Positions 1,870-59,032 of a stretch of 64,000 nt of DNA are shown here, piece after piece. A program made the translations under genes and the position numbers. The number at the start of each line of letters is the position of its first letter. Within the stretch, counting starts at the first letter, position 1. Below the pieces are notes generated by a model. That model was not told the origin of the DNA, did no database searches, and was given only the letters and a program-made list of their open reading frames with translations. This DNA comes from Cyanidioschyzon merolae (lineage: Eukaryota), in NCBI GenBank assembly GCA_000091205.1, contig AP006493.2; one strand, written 5' to 3'.

Positions 1870-4800
1870 TTACAGCGCCAGGTGACCAACACTGTGATCG
1901 AGTGTCGCATGCAGTTGCGCAACTCGTTCCGCAGAGACGTGTTGGCGTAACCACTCCAGAAACACGCCATCATCATGACGCTCTGCTCGCCAGTCATGAA
2001 TCCAGGCGTCTGTTAGCGCCAGAGCAACCGCTAAGCGCGGCTTTTCGCTTGCCCAGTGCTGTGCCGCTGCCTCCACATGCGGCCTGACTTGTTGCCATGA
2101 AGCACGCGTCAAGTAGACGAGGCAACACGCCAAACCAATCCATAGAGGCCAAAGCGGCTTGTTCACTGACTTGTCGTCCGAAAGCGTATGCGTCCAGCCT
2201 GGAGCCGCTAGGGGTGACGGCTCCTCGGGCGTGCACGCCTCGAAGACAGACGCTCTGTCAGGCGGAGCGACGTGTGCCCATGCGGGCGCTAGTCGCTCAC
2301 CGACTCGCAACGAATTCGATTTGGATTCGAACACCAGCTGTCCCAGTTCACAGAAAAACTTCTGCAGTGAAGCAGACCAACTGAATGGCGCGTTGCTCTG
2401 CGGCTCGACCTCGGCACAAAGAAGGTCCGCTTCTAGGAGCTCGATCGCGCTTAGCGTCGTTTCGCCTCGAGCAGCGTTCTGTGCTGCTGCATTGGACGAT
2501 GTCAGCGTACTGGATAACTCCAAAATCGCTGCAACCCAGTGGGGTAAAAGGGAAAGCGCTTTCTCGGCTGGTGGACGCCACCGTTGCTGCCCCTGTGATG
2601 CCGTTTTCGCTGCTGGATGTGGCGCGCTGCCCACAGTACTAGTCGCATCTGCGACTGATTCCGGTCCCATCTGGTAGAGGAACAGTGCTAAACTAGCGAG
2701 CAGCAACGCACGTATTCGCAGCGGGGATCTGAGGACAGCTCCACGCTGAGCATCCGGGTAAAACGGTGCCGTAGGATACATCTTCTCGACGCTGCTTACC
2801 AGATTCTGAAGCATATCTTGCGCGTTGGTACGCTGCCCCTGAACGCAGAGCGGGAACAGAACAATCGTCTTCGCCGTCTTGCTGTCGACTGGGCCGCAAG
2901 CACATGACTGTACCAACGCTAGGTATGCTGCGAGAGCGCGCGCATCGTTTTGCAATGCTCGGCGATGACAGGACTCGTGCGCTACCGACAATCCCGCCGT
3001 GCTCATCGAGAATACCCACAACGGCTCGATGTGCACTGCTGCCTCGACTGCATTAGCGCTCGATATGTGACCATGAACAGCGCTTTGGCGCCGAAGCATC
3101 CTCCAGTTCCGAGAGAGGTCTAGTGCCTGGAGCACCACATAGGCACCAAGCGCGTCAGATGTATCGAGCGTATTCGTTTCTCGACAGAAGACACAGGTTT
3201 CGGCTGCCGCACTGCTTTCGTTGCGACATGCTGCCGCCTCCGGGCGTTGACAGAGTGCATCTATTTGACGCTGTATCGCTTGCGTTGCTCGCTGACGAGC
3301 AAGGAGCGCCGCCTGGCGCCGAGTGCTCTGCAAAAGCGCTGCAGCATCATGAAGGTGCTGTGATCCGGGACCGCCGACCCGGTTGATGGCCTCGATAAGG
3401 TCCTCCGCAGCGTTCCCGATGCTACTTGGCTGTCTAGCAAGCTGGATGAGGCTGCTCGCTACTTGGACAGAGTTCGGGAAATGCCCTAGGCGCTTTTGGA
3501 GCTCAGCTGGTGCACTCGTCACCGCCAGCTGGAGAAAGCGACATAGGTCCTCGATACGAATCTCTGTGCTTCCGGATTGCAGCGCCCTTGTTGCTGTCTG
3601 TGATCCAGTCGGTTGTGTGGACGCTGGTGGCAGCCTCTGATGCGGCACCTGCTCGGTGCCATTTGAGGAGCCGGTCTTCACGTCAGTACGCACGGCTGAC
3701 ATGAGATCCTGCAGGGTCTGTTGGCACCACGCGATAAAGCCGCAAGTATCGAGGGCGTTCCACAGATCGCCACGCGGGAGGAAGCTCAGCATGATGCCGC
3801 ATTGTCGTACGGCCGTCTTCGGCCAGTGCTCGGATGCTATTGATACAGCCGACGTAAGTGGAAGACGCAATGCGGTAAGCACCGTCGGGACGTCCCCGAA
3901 ACGCGCCAGCAAACGAAGCCACAGGCGTTCTTTCTCGGCAGTGGGGGCGTCCTGCGCACCCGAAAACGCCCCAGTTAATCCCGTGCAGCTGCGATGATCT
4001 CGCGCGGGCGGTTGCTTCTGTTGCTGTTGCTGTTGCCGAGGCGTCGAGCGTCGCAACCACAGACTCGCCTGTTCACATATCGCGGACGCACAGGGCGAGC
4101 AGCTGGTGTCCTGCTGTCGTGCCTCCAACGGTGTCAGCTGTTTCGCCAGCAGGTCCAGCAATTGGTTGGCTATTGCGGCAAGTTCCGGGGAGCCTCGTGC
4201 CGCTAGCTGCGCAGCAGCGAGGAACGCCTCGTTTGTAAGACGCTGCCGTCGGGCCGTATCTAGACATGCCGACCAACATCTTGCCAGCTCCGACTCCTTG
4301 ACCGATACCTGATGTGTGCTGCTGCGATGGCTATCATCCGACGCTTCCATATCAAAAAGGGCTACCAGCTGGTGAATAGCCGCAGACGGTGCGAGCGGTA
4401 TGAGTCGCACGACGTGTTCCAGCCCACCGCCCCGAACAAAGCTTTTGAAAAGGAGCCGTCGGACCACGCGGGATGGATTTGATCTTGCTGCCGTGCCAGA
4501 AGCGTCTTCGGCCGGTGGCTTTGCAGTTTCGACCGTAAAGTGCGGCTCAGTTGCCTCGCCATCAAGACCTGCCAACCGATAAATGACCACGATAGTGCTG
4601 GTGGCGGCTTCTATAGAGCGAATAACTGCAAGTAAGGGCAAGGAAAGCGGAACCAAACGCCCACCGATCAAAAGCTCAAGCGCAAAGTCGTCCGAAAGCA
4701 AGGATTTGAGGTCTAGCTGCAAGCAAATGAAATCCTTGAGCACTCGCATGGTCCAGGCATGAGGTTCCTTCAAGGAAAGACTGAGCCCAGCTCTTTGACA

Positions 4801-8989: not shown

Positions 8990-11900
8990 CTCCGATTGTG
9001 CGCTAGTTCTTTTCTTACTTTTTTGTTTTTTTCAGTGCGAGGTGAGATATCCATCAACCCCCTACCTCCAAGTTACGCTACCCAGAATTTTCCTCGGATA
9101 TTCTGGTCGTTTCATACGTCCTATCGTGTGTGCCTAGTACCTGCAGTTCCGTATCCGCCTCTGGGCCTGAACCGCTGGAGCAGATAATTCATAGAGACAG
9201 AACGGCGTTGCCGTACCACAGAGGGCGTCAGCTCGAGGCGTGGTTCACCCGGCGTAGAATCGGGTCTCATTGTCTGTCTGTGCTCGGACAGTCTGCGGAT
9301 GCAGGCTTGTCTTCGCTGCACGACACGCTGGAGAAACTTGGCTGTTAGGATATATCCTGGGAGCCGCCTCTCTCCTTCGTGATCATGCATGGAGTGCGTT
9401 GTTGTCGGTTGGCAATGCGGGTTTCTGCTTGACACCCACCACAGTGGGTAGACGCAGAAAGCGCACTGAGCCCGTGTGCGCATCCGATTCGCTGGACCCT
9501 TCTTTCTAGAAGGTAGCATGTGAGTTTGTTCGCCACTAATGAGCGCTGAGGCTCCGTTAGCGGGCCATCAGTTGCCAGTGCTACACTCAAAGTGTGTGTC
9601 CGGCCTTTGGCTATCAAGGTGATGCCCAGCTGCTGCTGTCCTCCAAGGAGCTCGCTGCGCTCGTGTTTCCAGCGCGGGCACTGTAAGCCTAACTATGTCA
9701 GCGTCTCGGGGTTCTCGTTTCCACAGCAGGGACAGTGTGACTCCCAGTGCGATTCCAGTGTTCCTATGCGGCTTAGAGCCGGTGCTGGTAGCCAGAAGCC
9801 ACCAACGCGCATTTTGGCCAGCCACTGGGTACCTCGAGCAAGTCCCGGGAACTCCAGCGTCTCCCACCAGTGCTTGCATGTGTATGCTAGGTTGTAGTTC
9901 CGGTATAGAGTCAAGCCGGCGTTACTCGCGCGACTGGTACCGTGTCTACGTTCCCATATTGGTGTTTGGACCTTTCGCTTCAGGTGACGGGAGAATTCTA
10001 TATTTCTGGGGAACGATTGGGTAGCGTGTTTTCGCCTGAGAGGCGCTTCACCGAAATCTGCGTCGATTTCATCCAAGTGTTCTTGCGGTGGGTTGGGGTC
10101 TTCATGAAACTCCGACTGAACCAGGTGCGCATAGTGGGCCCTTTGGCCCGTATACATGCCCGGCAGCCTGCTGCTATCGCTTATATCGAGAGTATTTGGA
10201 GTTCAAGTCCGAGTGTCAGCGGGTTGGTCGCTCTGCTCTGCACTGAGCATCCAACAACAACAACGAGTCGCATTGCCCTGTTGGCGGCTGTCTGCAGACG
10301 TGAGGCATTTGGGTGCTTCATGCCGCACCATTCAGCACCCCAGGTCGCAGGCTGGATGATACACATCCTTAGTGCGCTGGTACGGATTGCTATGCAGATA
10401 GAGGGGTCGGATAAGAATGGGCCTGCGATCGCTATACGTCTATGCATCTTGGCGATCATCTCGTCGATGTGTGCCTTTTCGTCGAGCGTCGGCGTGAGAC
10501 AGACCCCCGGGTAGCGATCTTTTTCCACGATTGGAATTTCCTGATTCTGCAACCGCCACGAGCGATTGCGAATGCTCTGCGAGTCTCCATGGATGACCAT
10601 GACGCCGCACTTCGATGCTCCTATGCTCATCTCTCAGCGATCGGTCCAGGCGCTGACTTGTTCCATGCTACCCGCAAGCGTTTCCGGGGCGGGTGCCAAC
10701 AGCACGACATCGTCCGCAACTAGACGGCCTGCGAGGCGGTTTCTATGTGAGGGCTCCTCACCGGACATCTCCACAGTCTATCCACGGCGCCTCAGCCGCG
10801 AATTGTCTGCAGTTGTTCAGCAGATCGTTGATGAAGATGTTGAAAAGGAGCGGGGATGCGGGGTCGCCCTGTCGCAGTCCACGGTGGATTCTTATGGAAG
10901 GGGTTCTTGAGCAGTCGCCCAGTCGGATGCGCATCCATGAGTCTGCATAGAGCGCACGGAAGAACGCTAAGCACTTTCCGGAGACTCCGGCTCGTTCCAT
11001 CTTCAGAAATGGAGCCTCGTGCGGGACCGTGTCCAAGGCCTTTTGAAAGTCGGTGAAGCATACGTAAGCTGGTTGTTGGCCGCTAATCGAGCAACGTTGC
11101 ACCACTTCAGTTAGGGTCAGGGTATGGCTCATGCACTCCTCGTGGCTCCGGAATCCAGCCTGTTCTGGGGCGAAGAACTTGCGTTCCTGGAGGCCTCTCT
11201 GGATCCGGTTCGTGGGAATGGCGCAAAGTAGCTTCATGATTGACGGGATGAGGCGCATAGTCCGGTAGATGTTCATGTCTGTGTGGGAGTCCTTTTTGAG
11301 GATCGGTACGACCTCGGCAGTCCTCCGTACATCTGGGATGCACGCTTCTTCAAACATGCGTTGAATGAGCTCCAGAAGGCGTTTGCATAAGATTGTGTCA
11401 GGTTCATCTGGTATCGATAGTGTCCCTGTTGTCCCGTCTTTTGGGGTCGCCAGTTTCATCCACTCCGCCGCGATGCCGCCGATGCCAGGTGTTTTGCGGT
11501 TGCTTGAGCATAGCAGGGTCCGAACAGATTCAGGCCAGAAGATTGGGTCGTTCCATTCCGGTACCGGTTCGAGGCGCCGTAGTTCTGCAGCATATTGGTG
11601 CCGATAGATTCGGTTTTGGCAGTGCCCAGTTGCGTCTTCATGCAGCTCTGGCCCGTGGTCCGTCCAGGCCTCATTCACTGAGGCACTCTCCGTCCTCAGC
11701 GCTTCCTCATAAACGATTGGTGTGAGCCCCAAGCACTTTTTCGGTGGGTCGAGTCTCGATCGAATGTAGCCTGGGGTTTCATCTTCGCTGGTGCTCTCTA
11801 GCATAGATTTCGCCAGGGCGGCGATTTTGCGGCTTCGATCCTCTCGTTTGTCTTCTCTGGAAAGTTTCTTCTTTTTTTTGATAGCTTCTTCATGTTGCGC

Positions 11901-12750
11901 CTGTAGCGCCAGTAGCGCTGCCTTCGCTTCCTTGTCTCCGGCGTTGGTGCGTATGGCGGTGCGGTTGACGTTCTTATTGAGTCGATGGCATTCATCAATC
12001 CGAGTTTTGGTACGTCGTTTCAGGTACTGAGGTTTGCAACTGTTGTGTTCTGGTGCAAGCAGTCCCAGTTCTCTGGCAGTCTTCTTATTCCCATCTACAA
12101 ACTCGCGTGCCAATTGGTCTAAAGATTTGCATGCACGGCTTTTCGGATCTTCAGCGCTGTGAGTAGGTGCCTGGGTTTGGCGACGGCTTTCTTGAGTTCC
12201 AGCTGGGGCACTCTTTCAGGGGATCACTCATGATGGGCTCGTTTGGGGGGGGGTCTTCTTTCTCTTCTTCTGTTTTTTCTTGTCGGTCTTCCTCGTCTTC
12301 TTCGGGCTCTTTCCTGAGCTAAATTCTCTGGTTATTTTGCATCTAGGTGGATCATGAGGTTTCTGTGCCTCCTTCTCCGTATCCCGTTGGGTCTCTTTCG
12401 CTATTGCAGAGTCCTCTATTCGTGTCTCTTCTTCGTTAATGTACTGATAATTCGTTATCTCGTAGTTCAATACCGAGGCTATCCCGCAAATATTCCATGA
12501 TGCGAAACCTATCGAGTCGTAGCGCATAAGTGAATAGGAATAGCGCTGCGGTACTCCAGAGGTACGTCGTCGATTTAGACGCACGCTCCATGGGGTGTGT
12601 GAGCGTACATGCCACAATTGCCTCCTGCATTCCACTCGTTCACTGAGTGTCTGCCGCAGCACAAGCGTAGAATCAGAAGTACAATAGTCAAGGTCGATTC
12701 GAATGCGACCTTTATCTTGCCGGACGCGTGAAGCTCCCCTCAATTACTGG
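8990..12750 (-). mobile_element. degenerate non-LTR retrotransposon (LINE), ORF2 broken by frameshifts, endonuclease mostly deleted
   Basis: Minus-strand series. A vestigial APE-start motif 'ASWNICGIAS' lies in ORF 12228..12743. RT ORF 10758..12113 carries motif 0-like 'TPGIGGIAAEW', then 'FTDFQKALDTV' and 'GLRQGDPASPLLFNIFINDL'. The RT thumb continues in a different frame (10181..10630, 'IVEKDRYPGVCLTPTLD...AKMHRRIAI'). C-terminal CCHC finger 'CPCCGNENPETLT' is in 9693..10157. A T-rich run on the + strand at ~9010-9040 is the A-rich tail. Confidence 0.75.
10758..12113 (-). pseudogene. LINE ORF2 reverse-transcriptase fragment (truncated before the F/YxDD motif by a frameshift)
   Basis: RT palm motifs as listed for the LINE. 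The ORF ends inside the RT domain and the remainder is found in other frames downstream. Confidence 0.8.
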
Positions 12751-38305: not shown

Positions 38306-38896
38306 ATGATCAAAACGCGTGTCACAGCTTTCGTGCAACTCCCGGTTAGCGCTCAGTCGGGGCGTGCTGCCAGAGTGAACGCGCCGCGCAAGCACCGGCT
38401 GCAATCTCGAAAGTTCGTGCTCCATAGCGAGCTTCGTGTGGACCGTCGTGTTTTTCTGCGAAATAGTCTTGCGGTGTTTCTCGGGAGCCTCACCGCTGCT
38501 TTCTCTGCTTCGCGCACCGACTGGGGCGCGCAACCTGCAAACGCAGAAGTACTACGTCACGCAGCGCCGGGCTACGAGCTGCACGGCGACTACCACGAAG
38601 ACGCAACGCAGGTTGTGCAGTCGATGCGAACAGTAACTAGGTTGGAGCGGGGGACTCCTGGAATGAAAGAGAAAGTAGACGCAACTCGGAAGCAAATGAA
38701 CGATTTTGTCGCGCTTTACAGGAGGAACCCAAACGTTGCAGGGGCCGTGTCTTTCTCAACGCTGTATACTGCGATAAATACGCTGGCGGGTCATTTTGCA
38801 AGCTATGGCAGTACGTATCCTGTGCCGGAGAAAAGGAAAAAGCGCTTGGAGCAACAGCTCAATGACGTGGAGAGGGCCCTTAGTCGAGGTCGCTAG
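38306..38896 (+). CDS. PSB27: photosystem II repair/assembly protein Psb27, thylakoid-lumen targeted (twin-arginine signal)
   Basis: The mature region aligns closely with Synechocystis Psb27. 'MNDFVALYRRNPNVAGAVSFSTLYTAINTLAGHFASYGSTYPVPEKRKKRLEQQLNDVERALSRG' matches 'INDYISRYRRKGDAGGLKSFTTMQTALNSLAGYYTSYGARPIPEKLKKRLQLEFTQAERSIERG'. It is preceded by an S/R-rich presequence and the Tat motif 'DRRVFLRNSLAVFLGSLTAAFSA'. Confidence 0.9.
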   Translation: MIKTRVTAFVQLPVSAQSGRAARVNAPRKHRLQSRKFVLHSELRVDRRVFLRNSLAVFLGSLTAAFSASRTDWGAQPANAEVLRHAAPGYELHGDYHEDATQVVQSMRTVTRLERGTPGMKEKVDATRKQMNDFVALYRRNPNVAGAVSFSTLYTAINTLAGHFASYGSTYPVPEKRKKRLEQQLNDVERALSRGR

Positions 38897-43920: not shown

Positions 43921-44232
43921 TTAACGGTCGGCGAAGAATGATATCACTGGTGCGAAGAACTCGTCCTTAGATCCGAGCACGTACGCCATGCGTTTGGCAA
44001 CAGACAATTCGCCTTCGACTGGGTTCAACCAGGAAGAATAGGCACGTACGAAGAGCACTTCGACGCCACTCTTGTCCGCGTATGCCTTGCCCGCTTTTGC
44101 CGAATGGAAGGCGACTTTGTCTAAGAGCAAAACAGAAGACTGTGCGAAGAAGCATACACGAGAAGTGCGTAGACGAAGGGCGCTGTGTTCTGCAGTCCTG
44201 TTCATTTGACCAGTTATAGACAATCTCTCCAT
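43921..44232 (-). pseudogene. remnant of a Tc1/mariner-IS630-type DDE transposase (C-terminal fragment only)
   Basis: 'ADKSGVEVLFVRAYSSWLNPVEGELSVAKR' resembles the DDE_3 C-terminal signature '...GIEVL.WPA.SPDLNPIE..W..LK...'. No upstream part is recognisable. Confidence 0.3.
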
Positions 44233-47962: not shown

Positions 47963-49746
47963 GGAGCGTCCGGTCGGCGACTGCCCTGCTGCAGCGGCTG
48001 CGCCCTGTGCGTTTCGAACCCCACCAGAGTCAGCACAAGAGCCTCCGCCGCTACTCTACTATCAACAGACACTTTTAGTCCTGCACCGGCACCCTACAAA
48101 AACTGCCTCAACTTGCAAAGTTACAATGATATGGAAAATGGTGAACATGATGATGCATGCGACGTGCACGAGATGCGTGCAGCACGCACGCACGCTGCAA
48201 CGTCGTAAACAGATCATCGCGATGACGGGCTCGATCTCTGTGCGCGACGTCGCATCGACGGTGTGCGTGCAGATGTCCACGTGGCAGCGGTGTGGTGCAG
48301 GGCACGGCATCCGCTGGATCGTACGCATCAGCGACGATCCACGAAGGGAAGTCCGGCAGGCGCACAGACCGCTAGCACTGCACTCTTGGGAGGTGGGAAT
48401 GGTGTGTTGTGGTTGACGCTTACCTCGGTGACGAGAGCGATTACGTACTGGGGAGCCCCGGCTAGACTCGACGATCCTTCACACAAAAGAAGAGGTTTTG
48501 GGTATAGGCTCGAACGGTGCGTTGAAGCGCACGAGCCGGAACGTGTCTATGCCAGTAGGAAGCAGTGAAAAGCGTTTAGCTGTGCGGCGGACGCCTCCAC
48601 TCTCCTGAAACTCGTTATAGTCCAGTAGATCCGTTCAGGAATAGCGGATCGATCGGTTTGACGCCCCGACCAGTGGCGTGCCCATTGTCATCGCTGTACC
48701 GAGGCAAGGCAGCTTGGAGAAGTCTTCAGAGATGTCTGCACGAGATGCGGGTAAGCTGGGACGGACCCGAGACGCGTCGCACATATGGACACTGACAAGC
48801 TGCGTAGGCAGGCTTGTCGGCATGACACAACGGATGCACGTGCGTGCGGCGACACTGCTGAATGGAGGGGTATCGCACCCGCCGCACGGGCGCGCCGCTG
48901 CAGTGCGAACCTCTTGCGAGAACTGAAGCGCGGAGGTTTCCAGATGTCCGCGAGTCTCAGGCAGCAGAGCGGGTTGCGTTGTATTGACCGCAACACGCAG
49001 TTGCTTCAAAAATCGCACTGTGGTTCTCAATTACTCCAGAACGTTCTCGTAACATCTGCGTATATGGAAAGACCTGTGAGCGCGTCTTGAAATCTTGCTG
49101 ATTCGCGACGAAGCGTTTGAGATCTCATTCATCACTCTTGGATGCCGTACAGGCTAGATCGCTGTACCAAGAAGTGACCTCAGCGCTGGTAGTGTTTCGC
49201 GGCCCGTGCTGAGATAACGAGAAGCTCGGGGCTGATCTCTAGCGAGCGAAGCTGCCTCTGCTGCGTCATTTCCGAAGCAACCCAGCTCATCCTCGTAAAC
49301 AACATGCATCAACTGTGGTTTCAGAACACACGAGTGCCGTTACTAAAGGCAAAGGTATGCACTTTGGCCACGGTCGACAAGCATCTCTCTCACTCTCTTA
49401 ACCTCGAATGGCAGTCCGAGGATGCCTTATCCGATGTTTGCCCGCGTGCCTAGTCCAGTGAATACGCAAGCAGGCTACCAACGACATCATTGTGTTTCAG
49501 CAGACGCTGCAGCACGCTTGACCCGGGAATGACGGCATGGCATCCGCTGAACTGTGCGAATGCAACCTTCGTCGGGCTAGCAACCCCCTTTGCCGCAGCA
49601 GGGCGTAACGTGCACTCCGAGGTAGCCTCAAGCGGACTCGGCGAGCCACCAGCGTCGAAGCTCAGAAAGAGGCCCGCACCTACGCATGGCATTGTTACCT
49701 TGAATAGTATCCGTCGCCGAGACTCCAGCAAAGTATCTCTCGCTAC

Positions 49747-50871
49747 TTATTCGCTCTTTGCGGTGCGTGGTGCCGCAGCGGAACCAGCCCCGAATCGGCT
49801 CAGTTGTGGATCCTCGAGCCCCAGCTCTCGAAATGCAGTATGCCTGATACGACAGGCGTCGCAGCGTCGGCACGGTTTCCCCGACTCATCTAACGGATCG
49901 TAACAGCTGTGCGTGATGGAGTAGTCCACACCGAGCGCCAGGCCTGTGCGAATGATCTCGGTCTTCGGCATCTGCAACAGTGGTGCATGGATTCGAAAGC
50001 GCCTTGCATCGGAAGGCGCCACACCAGCGCGGGTGCCCAGCTCGGCAACCCGCTCAAAAGCGTGAAAGAATTCCGGCCGACAGTCGGGGTACCCTGAGTA
50101 ATCCACAGCGTTTGCGCCGATGAAAATATCGTAAGAGCCCTGAACCTCGGCGAGGGCGAGCGCATACGCGAGAAATATCGTATTCCTCGCTGGCACATAG
50201 GTCAGCGGGATTGTTTCTGGGGTATGTTCCCAGACATCGTCGACGTTCGCTGCTTTGGGAACGGGTATATCGGGAGCTGTCAATGCTGATCCGCCAATAC
50301 TTCCGAGGTCAAGGCGGATCCAGTGCTGTCCAGTGACTTGCTGCGCTCGCGCTACGCGCCGTGCCGCTTCGAGTTCGCAGCGGTGCCGTTGCCCGTAATC
50401 GAAACTCAGGGCCTTGCAGATGAACCCTTGCGAGCGTGCAATCGCCAGCGTCGTTGCTGAGTCCAGACCACCGCTGAGCAGAACGATAGCGACGGCACCG
50501 TTTTGAACTCCAGCCTGTCCCTGAGCGAGACCTCTAGAAGCAGACCGTGGAGGTGTAAGGCTGCTCGCACCGCGAACAGACCCAAACCTCGAGTGCAGCG
50601 CCGAGCTGGCACGATCGGCGGTGAAGCGCGTGTTCAGGCCGGCCTGCAATGATAACACGTCGCCTGTGAAGCACACCGATGGGTGCTGATCACCGTTATT
50701 CCAAGTGCTTGTACAGCGTTTACCCAGCTGGTAAAGAGATACGTTCTGCAACTTGTGGCAGCGTTCGGCGTTTGCGGAACGGTATCGAGACGCCTCAGCC
50801 CATGGTCCCGTGCACTGCGTCGACCGCAACCACAGCCGACAAGCGGAGCGCAGTGCAACTGCACCGAACAT
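49747..50871 (-). CDS. queC: 7-cyano-7-deazaguanine (preQ0) synthase QueC with a ~120-aa N-terminal extension
   Basis: Core matches bacterial QueC throughout: PP-loop '[15 protein letters not shown]', '[15 protein letters not shown]', '[17 protein letters not shown]', and the C-terminal Zn site '[26 protein letters not shown]' (canonical 'TCYNG...CGHCAACNLR'). The N-terminal 120 aa are Ser/Arg-rich, consistent with an organelle presequence. Confidence 0.85.
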
Positions 50872-51134
50872 GTTCTCGATAGCTTCAGTGCACTACTACA
50901 AGCGTCACCAAAACCATTACCTTCAGAAGAAGCAACAACGTCACCAGAGGCTTCTGCCGTTTCTGCTGCACACCTTGCGTCCACGAACGCCTATAAAGCT
51001 ATTGCGGAGCGCGCGATCGTTAGATCAGGGCGCTGTGGAAGCGCACGAGCTCGAAGCCACTGCTTCGAAGCCGAGTTGTTGCTAGACCTCTCGGGTTTTG
51101 CTACCGCTGGACTCGGTTTGCGTCAACAGGCACA

Positions 51135-52238
51135 GTGAGGAAGCTGGTGCTAGATCACCTACCTCCTGGCGGTATGTGGACAGGATTGGTTGTTCCTGGT
51201 CAACAGTGGAAGAACACTGGAACAAGACGACGTTGCCGCAGGTGCTTAACTGGGTCGACACGAGCGGCTCTCGCGCAACCCTGGCAACGCCTCGTGCAGT
51301 GCCCGGTGCTGAAGCAACCCGCCAGGAACGCTCTGGCGGTGACTGCGACGCATCCGGCGCTTCGACGTGCGCTTGTCTCTGTGCTACTCGTGGGGCTATG
51401 TTTCACCAACGACAGCCGGGTGTACGCAGTTCCCGCTCACGAACCTGTGGAACAAACGGACTCGACCGAACGGAGCCAGGCTATCGAACGTGAGCTCGAA
51501 GCAAAGTTTACGCAAGCGCTACGCCTCACCGAACAAGCTTCCTGGGAAGAAGCGGACAAGGCATGGAGTGCAGTGTTGGCCTTGGACCCGGACAACGGAG
51601 CCGCGCTCTCGAACCGAGGTCTCGTTCGCTTGTCGTTGCATCGCCTGGACGCAGCGCTCGCAGACCTCCAGCAGGCCGTCGAACGCTCACCCGCTGAGCC
51701 GGTCCTTCACGAGAACCTCGGTCTCGTCTATGAAGCCCGTGGTGAATGGGAACCAGCGCTCGAAGAGTATACAAAAGTTTTACAGAGCGTTCCAGCAAGC
51801 GCGACGGCCTTGATAAACAGGGGAAACGTGCAGGTCTCGCGCGGAGCGTACGCTGAAGCGCTTGCAGACTACCAGGCGGCTGCAGACGCGGAAACTGGTC
51901 TGGCTGCTCCACGCGAAAAAATGGCCCTGGTTATGGCACAGCTGGGACGTTCTGACGACAGTATTCAGATCCTGCGTCAGGTGGTACGCAAGTATCCAAC
52001 ATATGCCGAAGCGCATGCAGCGCTTGCAGCGGTGCTCTGGGGCGCAAAACATGACTTTCTCAGTGCCGAGGATCAATGGGCCCGTATTTCGAACAACGAA
52101 TTACGGGAGGAGATGTCGGAACTCGAAAACCTGCGCATCTACTCCCGATGGCCACCGCGTATGATTGAATACCTGCGCGAATTCTTGAACTTGGAGACCG
52201 CAAATCAGGAGATCGAGTCTGCCGGTTTTGTGCTCTAG
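51135..52238 (+). CDS. TPR-repeat protein with a twin-arginine (Tat) thylakoid-lumen-type signal
   Basis: 'LRRALVSVLLVGLCFTNDSRVYA|VPA' (RR plus hydrophobic core plus AxA-like cleavage site). At least four TPR units follow ('AWSAVLALDPDNGAALSNRGLVRLSLHRLDAALADLQQAVE', 'YAEALADYQAAAD' and others). Confidence 0.55.
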   Translation: MRKLVLDHLPPGGMWTGLVVPGQQWKNTGTRRRCRRCLTGSTRAALAQPWQRLVQCPVLKQPARNALAVTATHPALRRALVSVLLVGLCFTNDSRVYAVPAHEPVEQTDSTERSQAIERELEAKFTQALRLTEQASWEEADKAWSAVLALDPDNGAALSNRGLVRLSLHRLDAALADLQQAVERSPAEPVLHENLGLVYEARGEWEPALEEYTKVLQSVPASATALINRGNVQVSRGAYAEALADYQAAADAETGLAAPREKMALVMAQLGRSDDSIQILRQVVRKYPTYAEAHAALAAVLWGAKHDFLSAEDQWARISNNELREEMSELENLRIYSRWPPRMIEYLREFLNLETANQEIESAGFVL

Positions 52239-56338: not shown

Positions 56339-57628
56339 ATGCCATTATCGGTTATTCTGTTTCACTGCTCTGGTTCCTTCAACAGCTCGGAGCGTTATCG
56401 GGGACAACTGGCCCGGAACCCCGTGTGTGTGTGTGAAAGAGCGGTGTCGCAGCGCTGGAGCCGAACACCGATTGTTCTTGTTGCTGCCGCTGGTGCTGCT
56501 GAGCAGCGCGCGCCCTTGAAAGAGTGCGCTTGTACCTTGGACTGCACGGATATGTGTGTCTTCGTGCGAGTGCCTGGCAGGCCGGCGGCACTACGGAGTG
56601 TGGTTTGGAAGCGCAGCGCTCTTCTGTGCCAGTGGTCACCGGTCGCCTGGTGGTCGCGTCCTCGCCTCGCGCTTGGTTGCCGTGGAACGCGTCGAAGTGC
56701 CGCGGAGAGCACACCAGCGACGCTCGGACGAGTTATTTGCACAGCGCTTTCGTCCAGTCTACGAGTACGGGTCAACAAGGCGCTTCGAGAGCGCTTCTCT
56801 CGACGACAAGCGGATGAGCTGGTGCGTTCTGGCCGGGTCACGATTAACGGAAACCCGGCAACGCTCGGAGCGCGCGTCTCCGTGGACGACGTGATCGCTG
56901 TCGACGGAGAGCTGGTTTCCCTGTCGCAGAGCGCGTTCATTGCAGAAACTGACTTGGCTGCTATTGATTCGTGCTTTGTATATTTCAAGTACTGGAAACC
57001 GGTTGGTGTCGAGTGTACTACCGCCCCAGCCGTACCCGGCAACGTGCTAGAGGCGTCGGGGCTCGGTGCCTGGGCGGACCAGCACCATCTTCGTTTGTTC
57101 AACGTCGGACGTCTAGATAAAGACTCAACGGGCGTGTTGCTACTGACGAATGATGGACGCGTCGGGAACGCGCTTCTAGGAAGGAACAGTGGTTTTGTGA
57201 AAAGCTATCTGGTCACGCTGGACAAACCGATAGCTGACGAGGATATCGAGGCCATTCAGCAAGGCTTTGTGGTCGAAACCGAATACCGGCACGACAAGAA
57301 AGTGAAAACGATTCGCTTGCCAACCTTACCGTGTGCAGTGCGACGGCGCCCGCAACTCAACGAGATCGAAATCGATATTCATGAGGGCCGTAACCGTCAG
57401 ATTCGGCGAATGCTCATTTCACTTGGGTACCAAGTACGACGGCTGCATCGATTTGCCTTTTGCGGTATTGAACTGGGGCCAGAGCTAGATAAAGAGGGTT
57501 CCTGGGCGCCACTGAACGAACGTGAACTTGGAATCATTGCGGAGGCGCTGCGTATGCATGCGGAGCACAAAAGCATGCCCAGTCACAAGCGGCCTACCCA
57601 GTTTCGCATTCTCGATACAAGATCATGA
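56339..57628 (+). CDS. RsuA/RluB-family pseudouridine synthase (S4 domain plus PseudoU_synth_2), bacterial/organellar type, with an N-terminal extension
   Basis: S4-like 'RQADELVRSGRVTINGNPATLGARVSVDDVIAVDGELV'. Catalytic 'VGRLDKDSTGVLLLTNDG' (conserved Asp). 'IEIDIHEGRNRQIRRMLISLGYQVRRLHRFAFCGIEL' is the RsuA-family C-terminal motif. The first ~130 aa lie outside the domain. Confidence 0.75.
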   Translation: MPLSVILFHCSGSFNSSERYRGQLARNPVCVCERAVSQRWSRTPIVLVAAAGAAEQRAPLKECACTLDCTDMCVFVRVPGRPAALRSVVWKRSALLCQWSPVAWWSRPRLALGCRGTRRSAAESTPATLGRVICTALSSSLRVRVNKALRERFSRRQADELVRSGRVTINGNPATLGARVSVDDVIAVDGELVSLSQSAFIAETDLAAIDSCFVYFKYWKPVGVECTTAPAVPGNVLEASGLGAWADQHHLRLFNVGRLDKDSTGVLLLTNDGRVGNALLGRNSGFVKSYLVTLDKPIADEDIEAIQQGFVVETEYRHDKKVKTIRLPTLPCAVRRRPQLNEIEIDIHEGRNRQIRRMLISLGYQVRRLHRFAFCGIELGPELDKEGSWAPLNERELGIIAEALRMHAEHKSMPSHKRPTQFRILDTRS

Positions 57629-58285: not shown

Positions 58286-59032
58286 TCAGTCAGATGGCTT
58301 CTCTTTGGTATAATTGCTTCTTTTGCGCGCTTCCTCGCTTACTCTTTGCATGATAAACGTATACGTCTTATCAAAGTCAGGAACTGCTCGAAGCTCCAGC
58401 CTCGCTCCGCCCTTGAGCAGAATCACGTAGTCTGCGGAGATACCGCCGAACCTTCGAACGTATCGTACTTCCTCAATATCACGATAAACTACTTCGGTTT
58501 CATCACGACCCATGAATCCTGCCCGAACGTATATGCTGCGGTTCGAAATACGGTAACGAACCCAGTACTGTCGCGCTAGCGCTGCCGCGAAAGGTATCAC
58601 GCCGATAACCGTGAGAATCGAAAGCCCCGGCAGAAGCAACTCCGTCCAGGAAGGCGGTCCATCATAGAACGTCTGTTCAGGCTCTAGCGATGATGGTTTG
58701 CGAATTGCTTCTTCCTCCTCGTCCACGGACTTTTTGCGAACCTTCATCACCGGAGACGGAAGTCTGCGAAGCGGCGGCCTCTGCGTGCGCCGTCCCACAC
58801 GCCGTTTCACGCTGGTGGGCGTCACAAGCGGTTGCACCACGCGTGCCGACACAACAGCTGGTAGCGCTACGAACATGTTTGAGACGTATGACGTTCCAAC
58901 TTGGACTGCTGTGGGAAGCGCTGTTCGCCAGCGTCTCAGTGAATGCCGGGCGTTCTGGTTGCCAACGCCCAGCTCAGTTCCAGAGCACGAGTAGCACACT
59001 AGTGTACCTCTGTGAACACCTTGAAAAACCAC
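58286..59032 (-). CDS. membrane protein with a bacterial PH (bPH_2/YdbT-like, DUF304) domain
   Basis: Two TM helices ('LLLPGLSILTVIGVIPFAAALA'), then 'RYRISNRSIYVRAGFMGRDETEVVYRDIEEVRYVRRFGGISADYVILLKGGARLEL', typical of bPH_2. Confidence 0.5.
   Translation of the reverse strand: MVFQGVHRGTLVCYSCSGTELGVGNQNARHSLRRWRTALPTAVQVGTSYVSNMFVALPAVVSARVVQPLVTPTSVKRRVGRRTQRPPLRRLPSPVMKVRKKSVDEEEEAIRKPSSLEPEQTFYDGPPSWTELLLPGLSILTVIGVIPFAAALARQYWVRYRISNRSIYVRAGFMGRDETEVVYRDIEEVRYVRRFGGISADYVILLKGGARLELRAVPDFDKTYTFIMQRVSEEARKRSNYTKEKPSD

Follow-up and report, generated by a model that had tools for sequence, protein, structure and literature searches.

A nuclear QueC gene with a putative organelle-targeting leader in Cyanidioschyzon merolae and its relatives

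The CMK180C gene and its QueC assignment

The subject of this analysis is CMK180C, a gene of the unicellular, thermoacidophilic hot-spring red alga Cyanidioschyzon merolae (assembly GCA_000091205.1, contig AP006493.2), which lies within a 64,000-nucleotide stretch of that contig (hereafter the window) and encodes a homolog of bacterial QueC. QueC is an ATP-dependent, zinc-containing PP-loop enzyme that converts 7-carboxy-7-deazaguanine (CDG) and ammonia to preQ0, and its presence suggests that this alga makes its own precursor of queuosine (Q), the rest of the pathway being partly confirmed. The gene and the parts of its product are placed as follows.

49747..50871, minus strand: complete coding sequence of CMK180C, nuclear QueC precursor (374 amino acids plus stop, ATG start)
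50497..50871, minus strand: putative organelle-targeting presequence, residues 1-125 (from composition, disorder, and absence in bacteria)
49801..50496, minus strand: QueC catalytic domain, residues 126-357 (PF06508, TIGR00364, and fold)
50458..50475, minus strand: PP-loop ATP-pyrophosphatase motif SGGLDS, residues 133-138 (from the translation)
49852..49905, minus strand: zinc-binding cysteine cluster C323-x10-C334-x2-C337-x2-C340 (from the translation)

The ATG of CMK180C is preceded by an in-frame stop eight codons upstream, and the product is identical at 374 of 374 residues to the protein deposited for C. merolae 10D (BAM80547.1, XP_005536583.1, UniProt M1VCZ6). The gene itself is not new, having been deposited and named since the genome project and machine-annotated as QueC: the automatic annotation in UniProt and JGI reads 7-cyano-7-deazaguanine synthase. 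Its GenBank product name, "probable transcription regulator exsB," uses an older name of QueC and is misleading as a label, which the present identification corrects. The novelty is smaller than the preliminary description of this DNA implied, because the gene was already in the databases and the downstream, bacterial-type half of the pathway had already been reported in red algae.

The Pfam QueC model (PF06508) aligns with residues 128-350 at E=3.2e-68 and 229.8 bits (cut-off 22), covering profile positions 2-209 of 210, and the NCBIfam QueC equivalog TIGR00364 is matched over positions 1-201 of 201 with 177.8 bits against a cut-off of 150.3. The motifs named in the preliminary description, namely SGGxDS, FDYGQRH, SGYPDCR, and a C-terminal four-cysteine site, are all present, with FDYGQRH at residues 157-163 and SGYPDCR at residues 259-265. 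Across 46 aligned sequences, SGGLDS and the four cysteines (C323, C334, C337, and C340) are invariant, and the other two motifs are invariant or nearly so. The best PDB matches, both by sequence and by fold, are the QueC structures 2PG3 and 3BL5, for which a Foldseek comparison with the AlphaFold model gave TM-scores of 0.74-0.83 normalized to the target; the QueC domain of this AlphaFold2 model has a per-residue confidence (pLDDT) of ~85-98, lying around 90. Bacterial QueCs share 60-66% identity with the domain, and some of them at least belong to que operons, such as QueC-QueE at locus L012 and QueG/QueC/QueE-like/QueD at locus L008. Because the family models, the invariant motifs, and the structure matches agree, the predicted identity of CMK180C as a canonical QueC can be regarded as safe, and the earlier statement that the reading frame is an unambiguous QueC is borne out by an equivalog score above cut-off, the Pfam match, the motifs, and the fold.

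Nuclear locus, distribution, and origin

CMK180C is a genuine, transcribed nuclear gene with a QueC domain under strong purifying selection. The locus prefix CMK suggests a position on chromosome 11. The GC content around the gene is 0.57-0.59 (window range, 0.50-0.59), and its neighbors in the window are plainly eukaryotic, encoding an SRPK-like kinase, Der1, a mitochondrial carrier, a UBR4-like protein, GFAT, WD40 and RINGv proteins, and Psb27. An identical gene with the same TPR, SRPK-like kinase, and RINGv flanks recurs in independent JGI, ENA, and Logan assemblies; gene order is kept in the Cyanidioschyzon-like GCA_041825655.1 and in Cyanidiococcus yangmingshanensis GCA_026122185.1, and the orthologs of CMK179-181 are adjacent in another Cyanidiaceae strain (PMC13353863 table). 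Transcription of CMK180C has been recorded in two independent studies (PMC6606799, PMC13353863). Between species, the QueC domain has a dN of 0.10-0.13 with dS saturated above 2, and dN/dS is ~0.04 where computable. The bacterial type of the domain, together with the bacterial affiliation of its nearest relatives beyond the Cyanidiaceae, could be taken as a sign of bacterial contamination or of a chimeric assembly, but the locus and its flanks are found in four independent environmental and three genome assemblies, the GC content is like that of the neighbors, the leader is of eukaryotic style, and the gene is expressed in laboratory cultures; we give this explanation virtually no credence. 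The earlier judgment that contamination is unlikely therefore holds on shared synteny, GC content, leader, and transcription, and the two doubts that had been attached to it, an untranscribed gene and a chimeric contig, are answered by expression in two data sets and by the recurrence of locus and flanks in independent assemblies.

A protein homolog search over 5.8 billion proteins returned close relatives with leaders only from Cyanidioschyzon (two species-level clusters), Cyanidiococcus, and Cyanidium caldarium, plus one 412-residue protein (P0100) encoded on a 5.5-kb contig of 65-74% GC (L011, from Logan SRR31152685; QueC reading frame 3324..4562). In the L011 protein, two surface loops contain insertions rich in His and in Ala, and the leader is rich in Ala and Ser. 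With this protein, which comes from a high-GC alga, the eukaryotic QueC clade reaches past the named members of the Cyanidiaceae. When a profile of the five eukaryotic sequences was searched, its best 120 matches included neither an additional eukaryotic cluster nor any protein from Galdieria. The remaining top matches are bacterial, at 57-66% identity, and those that carry names belong to Planctomycetota (Phycisphaerae, Algisphaera), Armatimonadota (Fimbriimonadaceae), and Deferrisoma, with neither Cyanobacteria nor Chlamydiae among the named top matches. A scan of GTDB with exact 8-mer QueC peptides was too specific, recovering three loci only (one in Nitrosomonas and two in archaea).

Some candidates for further eukaryotic members were rejected. 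Three long QueC forms (P0166, P0172, and P0175, each a 50%-identity representative) lie in bacterial contexts, and their starts are probably mis-called. A protein entered in EukProt for Nemacystus decipiens (P0027, g12387.t1) has 231 residues, lacks a leader, and is 60% identical; it is probably a bacterial contaminant and was left out of the eukaryotic count.

The phylogeny proposed in the preliminary description was run as a neighbor-joining tree, with a sampling without any named cyanobacterial QueC. The eukaryotic sequences group together in this tree, firmly for the Cyanidioschyzon/Cyanidiococcus clade (200/200) and weakly for its union with Cyanidium (27/200), and the bacterial sister group is not resolved. 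Because the synteny is shared, the data argue for a single acquisition from a bacterium by an ancestor of the Cyanidiaceae, the placement of Cyanidium in the tree being weak. A cyanobacterial origin, one of the options raised earlier, is not favored, since the named best matches are Planctomycetota and Armatimonadota; to judge from these sequence matches, the gene more probably came from some donor other than the cyanobacterial ancestor of the plastid.

Upstream, CMK180C is arranged head-to-head with a gene for a TPR protein.

50872..51173, no strand: 302-bp intergenic region between the QueC and TPR genes, presumed divergent promoter region (from the sequence)
51174..52238, plus strand: CMK181C, conserved TPR protein (12 TPR Pfam families match)

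The divergent TPR gene of the preliminary description is a real reading frame, and the distance between the two genes, given there as 264 bp, comes to 263 nt when measured to the GTG at the start of the mechanically called frame and to 302 nt when measured to the first ATG at 51174. The N-terminus of CMK181C (...HPALRRALVSVLLVGLCFTNDSRVYAVPA) resembles a transit peptide joined to a twin-arginine lumen signal; the end of the leader (...ALRRALVSVLLVGLCFTNDSRVYAVPA) resembles a twin-arginine thylakoid-lumen signal, so that the Tat signal attributed to this neighbor is plausible. The head-to-head pairing is kept in four genomes or contigs (the window, L011:1808-3049, L014:8695-9741, and L015:8709-9764), and the TPR ortholog next to QueC on L011 is 37% identical (E=1e-47). 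The conservation of this pairing may reflect a shared promoter or plain synteny; CMK181C is treated here as a syntenic partner.

Downstream of the QueC stop, the ~1.8 kb at 47963..49746 contain no open reading frame of more than 131 residues and no family match, and prokaryotic gene callers put several small, unsupported genes into the counterpart of this region on matching metagenome contigs. Elsewhere in the window, an RVT_1 reverse-transcriptase reading frame (10758..12113, minus strand) and a short DDE_3 transposase-like fragment (~43921..44232, a JGI call on a matching contig) are mobile-element remnants within an otherwise compact genome. About 5 kb from QueC lies a second bacterial-type RNA-modification enzyme with an organelle-directed look, an RluD-type pseudouridine synthase with an N-terminal extension of ~150 residues, which adjoins a bPH_2 (bacterial PH) protein.

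56339..57628, plus strand: RluD-type pseudouridine synthase (S4 and PseudoU_synth_2 domains)
58286..59032, minus strand: bPH_2-domain protein

Leader, destination, and queuosine pathway

The leader of CMK180C, of ~125-127 residues, contains 15 Arg and Lys, 5 Asp and Glu, and 24 Ser and Thr residues, giving a net charge of ~+10. Close to its N-terminus lies an amphipathic helix rich in Arg (residues ~2-17), after which comes a disordered Ser/Thr/Arg-rich stretch; the maximal hydrophobic moment, for a segment of 18 residues, is 0.51, and in the AlphaFold2 model a helix is predicted at residues 2-17, whereas most of residues 1-119 have a pLDDT below 50. After the initial Met, the protein has none before residue 301, and initiation at an ATG thus entails translation of the leader. 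An N-terminal extension is found in all five eukaryotic orthologs (35 to ~130 residues, depending on the gene model) and is absent in bacteria; leader identity across species is ~20% while length and reading frame are kept, which is the usual behavior of targeting peptides. The N-termini of the orthologs from Cyanidium (MLLRRLSRAG...) and L011 (MALRAAALVRLAQRAAHYRARRG...) resemble classic mitochondrial presequences. The leader is of a putative import signal type, conserved as a feature in every ortholog, in agreement with the organelle-style, S/R-rich extension of ~120 residues noted earlier, and as the destination of the predicted import the mitochondrion is slightly favored.

Several genes that could act up- or downstream of QueC are on record for C. 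merolae. A chlamydial-type queuine tRNA-ribosyltransferase (TGT) was listed in a genome screen (Huang and Gogarten, PMC2530860 Table 1), and the red-algal TGT groups with Chlamydiae and has been called putatively mitochondrial (Moustafa et al., PMC2376095). In the C. merolae annotation tables, CMO322C is QueA; CMF055C is GTP cyclohydrolase I (FolE) by product name only, an enzyme expected for folate synthesis too; and CMG095C, PTPS-like by product name, is a candidate QueD. Among the entries listed in these tables, which carry product names of 2007, there was no QueE, QueF, or TGT by name and no "radical" product name, as sought for QueE. The window contains no other pathway gene according to Pfam scans and tblastn with bacterial QueE, QueD, and QueG, and a database search with an Armatimonadota QueE was uninformative on C. 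merolae, its best 120 matches all being bacterial with flat scores of 292-334 bits. The check on pathway genes suggested in the preliminary description thus came out positive for FolE, TGT, and QueA by product name or from the literature, gave CMG095C as a candidate for QueD, and ended in a flat search for QueE. To our knowledge, the only substrate of QueC is the product of QueE, and the strong purifying selection on QueC therefore argues that QueE is present. The annotation of Galdieria partita includes a queuosine salvage protein as well as a queuine tRNA-ribosyltransferase (PMC13353863), which is no more than a hint at a split between salvage in heterotrophic and synthesis in strictly autotrophic cyanidiophytes.

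We consider it fairly probable that CMK180C provides a functional QueC of bacterial derivation, imported into an organelle and feeding a bacterial-type queuosine pathway for organellar tRNAs. The precursor would be made with its ~125-residue leader and imported, with the mitochondrion slightly favored and the plastid or dual targeting possible; the organellar QueC would convert CDG and ammonia to preQ0, from which a QueF would produce preQ1 for the bacterial-type TGT and the QueA known in C. merolae. The organellar tRNA-Asp, tRNA-Asn, tRNA-His, and tRNA-Tyr would then carry queuosine without external queuine, as would suit an obligate photoautotroph whose growth medium is wholly inorganic. In this proposal we infer the import and its destination, the existence of QueE, QueF, and QueG/H in C. 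merolae, and the occurrence of Q itself.

Some observations weigh against this proposal. On the side of targeting, 125 residues is long for a simple mitochondrial presequence, the leader begins with MF, and an N-terminal Phe motif is possible in C. merolae plastid proteins (as in Psb27, ...TAFVQLPV...); plastid localization has also been predicted for the C. merolae TGT (PMC2530860). On the side of the pathway, CMG095C could be a folate-type PTPS instead of QueD, a literature search for measurements of Q, preQ0, or preQ1 in tRNA of C. merolae came up empty, and neither QueE, as the source of the only known substrate of QueC, nor QueF was found, a result that is uninformative rather than negative in view of the flat search scores and of the old product names in the gene table entries covered. 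The points on targeting bear on an alternative in which the same enzyme is imported into the plastid or dual-targeted and queuosine is placed on plastid-encoded tRNAs with GUN anticodons. The entry of the C. merolae TGT as plastid-localized by Huang and Gogarten, who also state that dual targeting is common among organellar tRNA enzymes (PMC2530860), is consistent with this alternative, as are the MF start of a leader that is Ser/Thr-rich and transit-peptide-like over ~100 residues and the N-terminal Phe motifs of plastid proteins in the window. However, the Phe is not kept in the Cyanidium and L011 orthologs, whose N-termini look mitochondrial, and mitochondrial localization has been predicted for algal TGT, QueA, and QueG in two later papers (PMC12301720, PMC2376095), so that plastid or dual import is a possible but clearly less probable outcome. 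The plastid or lumen leader of C. merolae has an example in the window itself.

38306..38896, plus strand: Psb27 homolog with a bipartite leader (...TAFVQLPV... Phe motif, then a Tat-type signal, DRRVFLRNSLAVFLG)

The points on the pathway bear on an incomplete route, in which precursors imported from hot-spring bacteria (CDG or preQ0/preQ1) would be used and synthesis would not be truly de novo. Neither QueE nor QueF turned up among the listed gene table entries, nor did QueE in the flat search, and the organellar pathway of Chloropicon has been proposed to run on salvaged preQ1 via YhhQ (PMC12301720). Strong purifying selection on an enzyme whose sole known substrate comes from QueE speaks against such a route. 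We know of no route of CDG salvage, and axenic culture in mineral medium is routine for C. merolae; taken together, we regard an incomplete pathway as unlikely. The preQ0 might also serve another 7-deazaguanine product, be it a deazapurine metabolite, a Dpd-type DNA modification, or a Cap9-like protein conjugation, since QueC homologs act in toyocamycin-type pathways and in DNA modification (PMC5699537), the QueC-like Cap9 is the third-best fold match, and both 7-deazapurine natural products and red algae are mentioned in some reviews. Yet CMK180C scores above the QueC equivalog cut-off and shares 60-66% identity with housekeeping QueCs in que operons, its match to Cap9 is weak, C. merolae has TGT and QueA, which are tRNA-side enzymes needing preQ1, and no dpdA-like or toy-like gene was found in the window, all of which makes such a use highly improbable. 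A bacterial-type queuosine pathway for organellar tRNAs is the reading that we prefer.

Significance and comparison with known systems

All eukaryotes studied are stated to depend on the salvage of queuine (PMC12301720, 2025; likewise the review PMC5699537), and the premise of the preliminary description that eukaryotes are thought only to salvage it is thus still stated in the literature. Searches by Cyanidioschyzon and queuosine topics and by CMK180C locus and accession names returned no paper discussing a eukaryotic QueC, and an eLife paper on horizontal gene transfer does not mention CMK180C; that the Cyanidiaceae could themselves synthesize preQ0, and probably queuosine too, is an implication that appears to be unreported. 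If true, it would be the first counter-example to the view that eukaryotes cannot make 7-deazaguanines and need queuine from bacteria or diet. A wider proposal, for and against which we see the balance as even, is that the Cyanidiaceae (Cyanidioschyzon, Cyanidiococcus, and Cyanidium) may be the first queuosine-autonomous eukaryotes, with a complete organellar de novo pathway leading from GTP through preQ0 and preQ1 to Q-tRNA, which would have come from mixed bacterial donors (Planctomycetota/Armatimonadota-like for QueC, Chlamydiae for TGT) and would have persisted over hundreds of millions of years for want of queuine in the acidic niche of these autotrophic algae. With ~4,800 genes, knockouts via homologous recombination, and one mitochondrion and one plastid per cell, C. 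merolae is a tractable model alga in which the synthesis of preQ0 and queuosine is directly testable, and it offers a clean system both for the role of queuosine in organellar translation and for the question of how gene transfer assembles a multi-step bacterial pathway in a eukaryote.

Compared with the bacterial QueCs of known structure (Bacillus subtilis YkvJ, PDB 3BL5; Pectobacterium ECA1155, PDB 2PG3), CMK180C has the same domain end to end, with the PP-loop, the four-cysteine zinc site, and the predicted fold, but it is nuclear, monocistronic, and outside any que operon, it carries a non-conserved leader of 125 residues, and a few residues of the loop that follows VPK are specific to its lineage. 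Fold and adenylation chemistry are also shared with Cap9 of type IV CBASS (PDB 9NTO), with ToyM of the toyocamycin pathway, and with the QueC of dpd clusters; on the other hand, Cap9 aligns by sequence weakly and over part of the length (26.5 bits, E=3e-5), and Pfam scans and tblastn found no CBASS, dpd, or toy partners near CMK180C in the window. With respect to the chlamydial-type TGT of red algae, the nearest named relatives of this QueC are not Chlamydiae. Mitochondrion-targeted, bacterial-like TGT (BL-TGT), QueA, and QueG have been described in Chloropicon and some red algae (PMC12301720), and this organellar salvage system, which includes YhhQ, has in common with CMK180C that nuclear genes of bacterial origin with organelle-style presequences are devoted to queuosine-related steps. 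Whereas those reports concern tRNA-side steps only, with uptake of preQ1 proposed, the QueC of CMK180C represents an upstream biosynthetic step that they do not cover.

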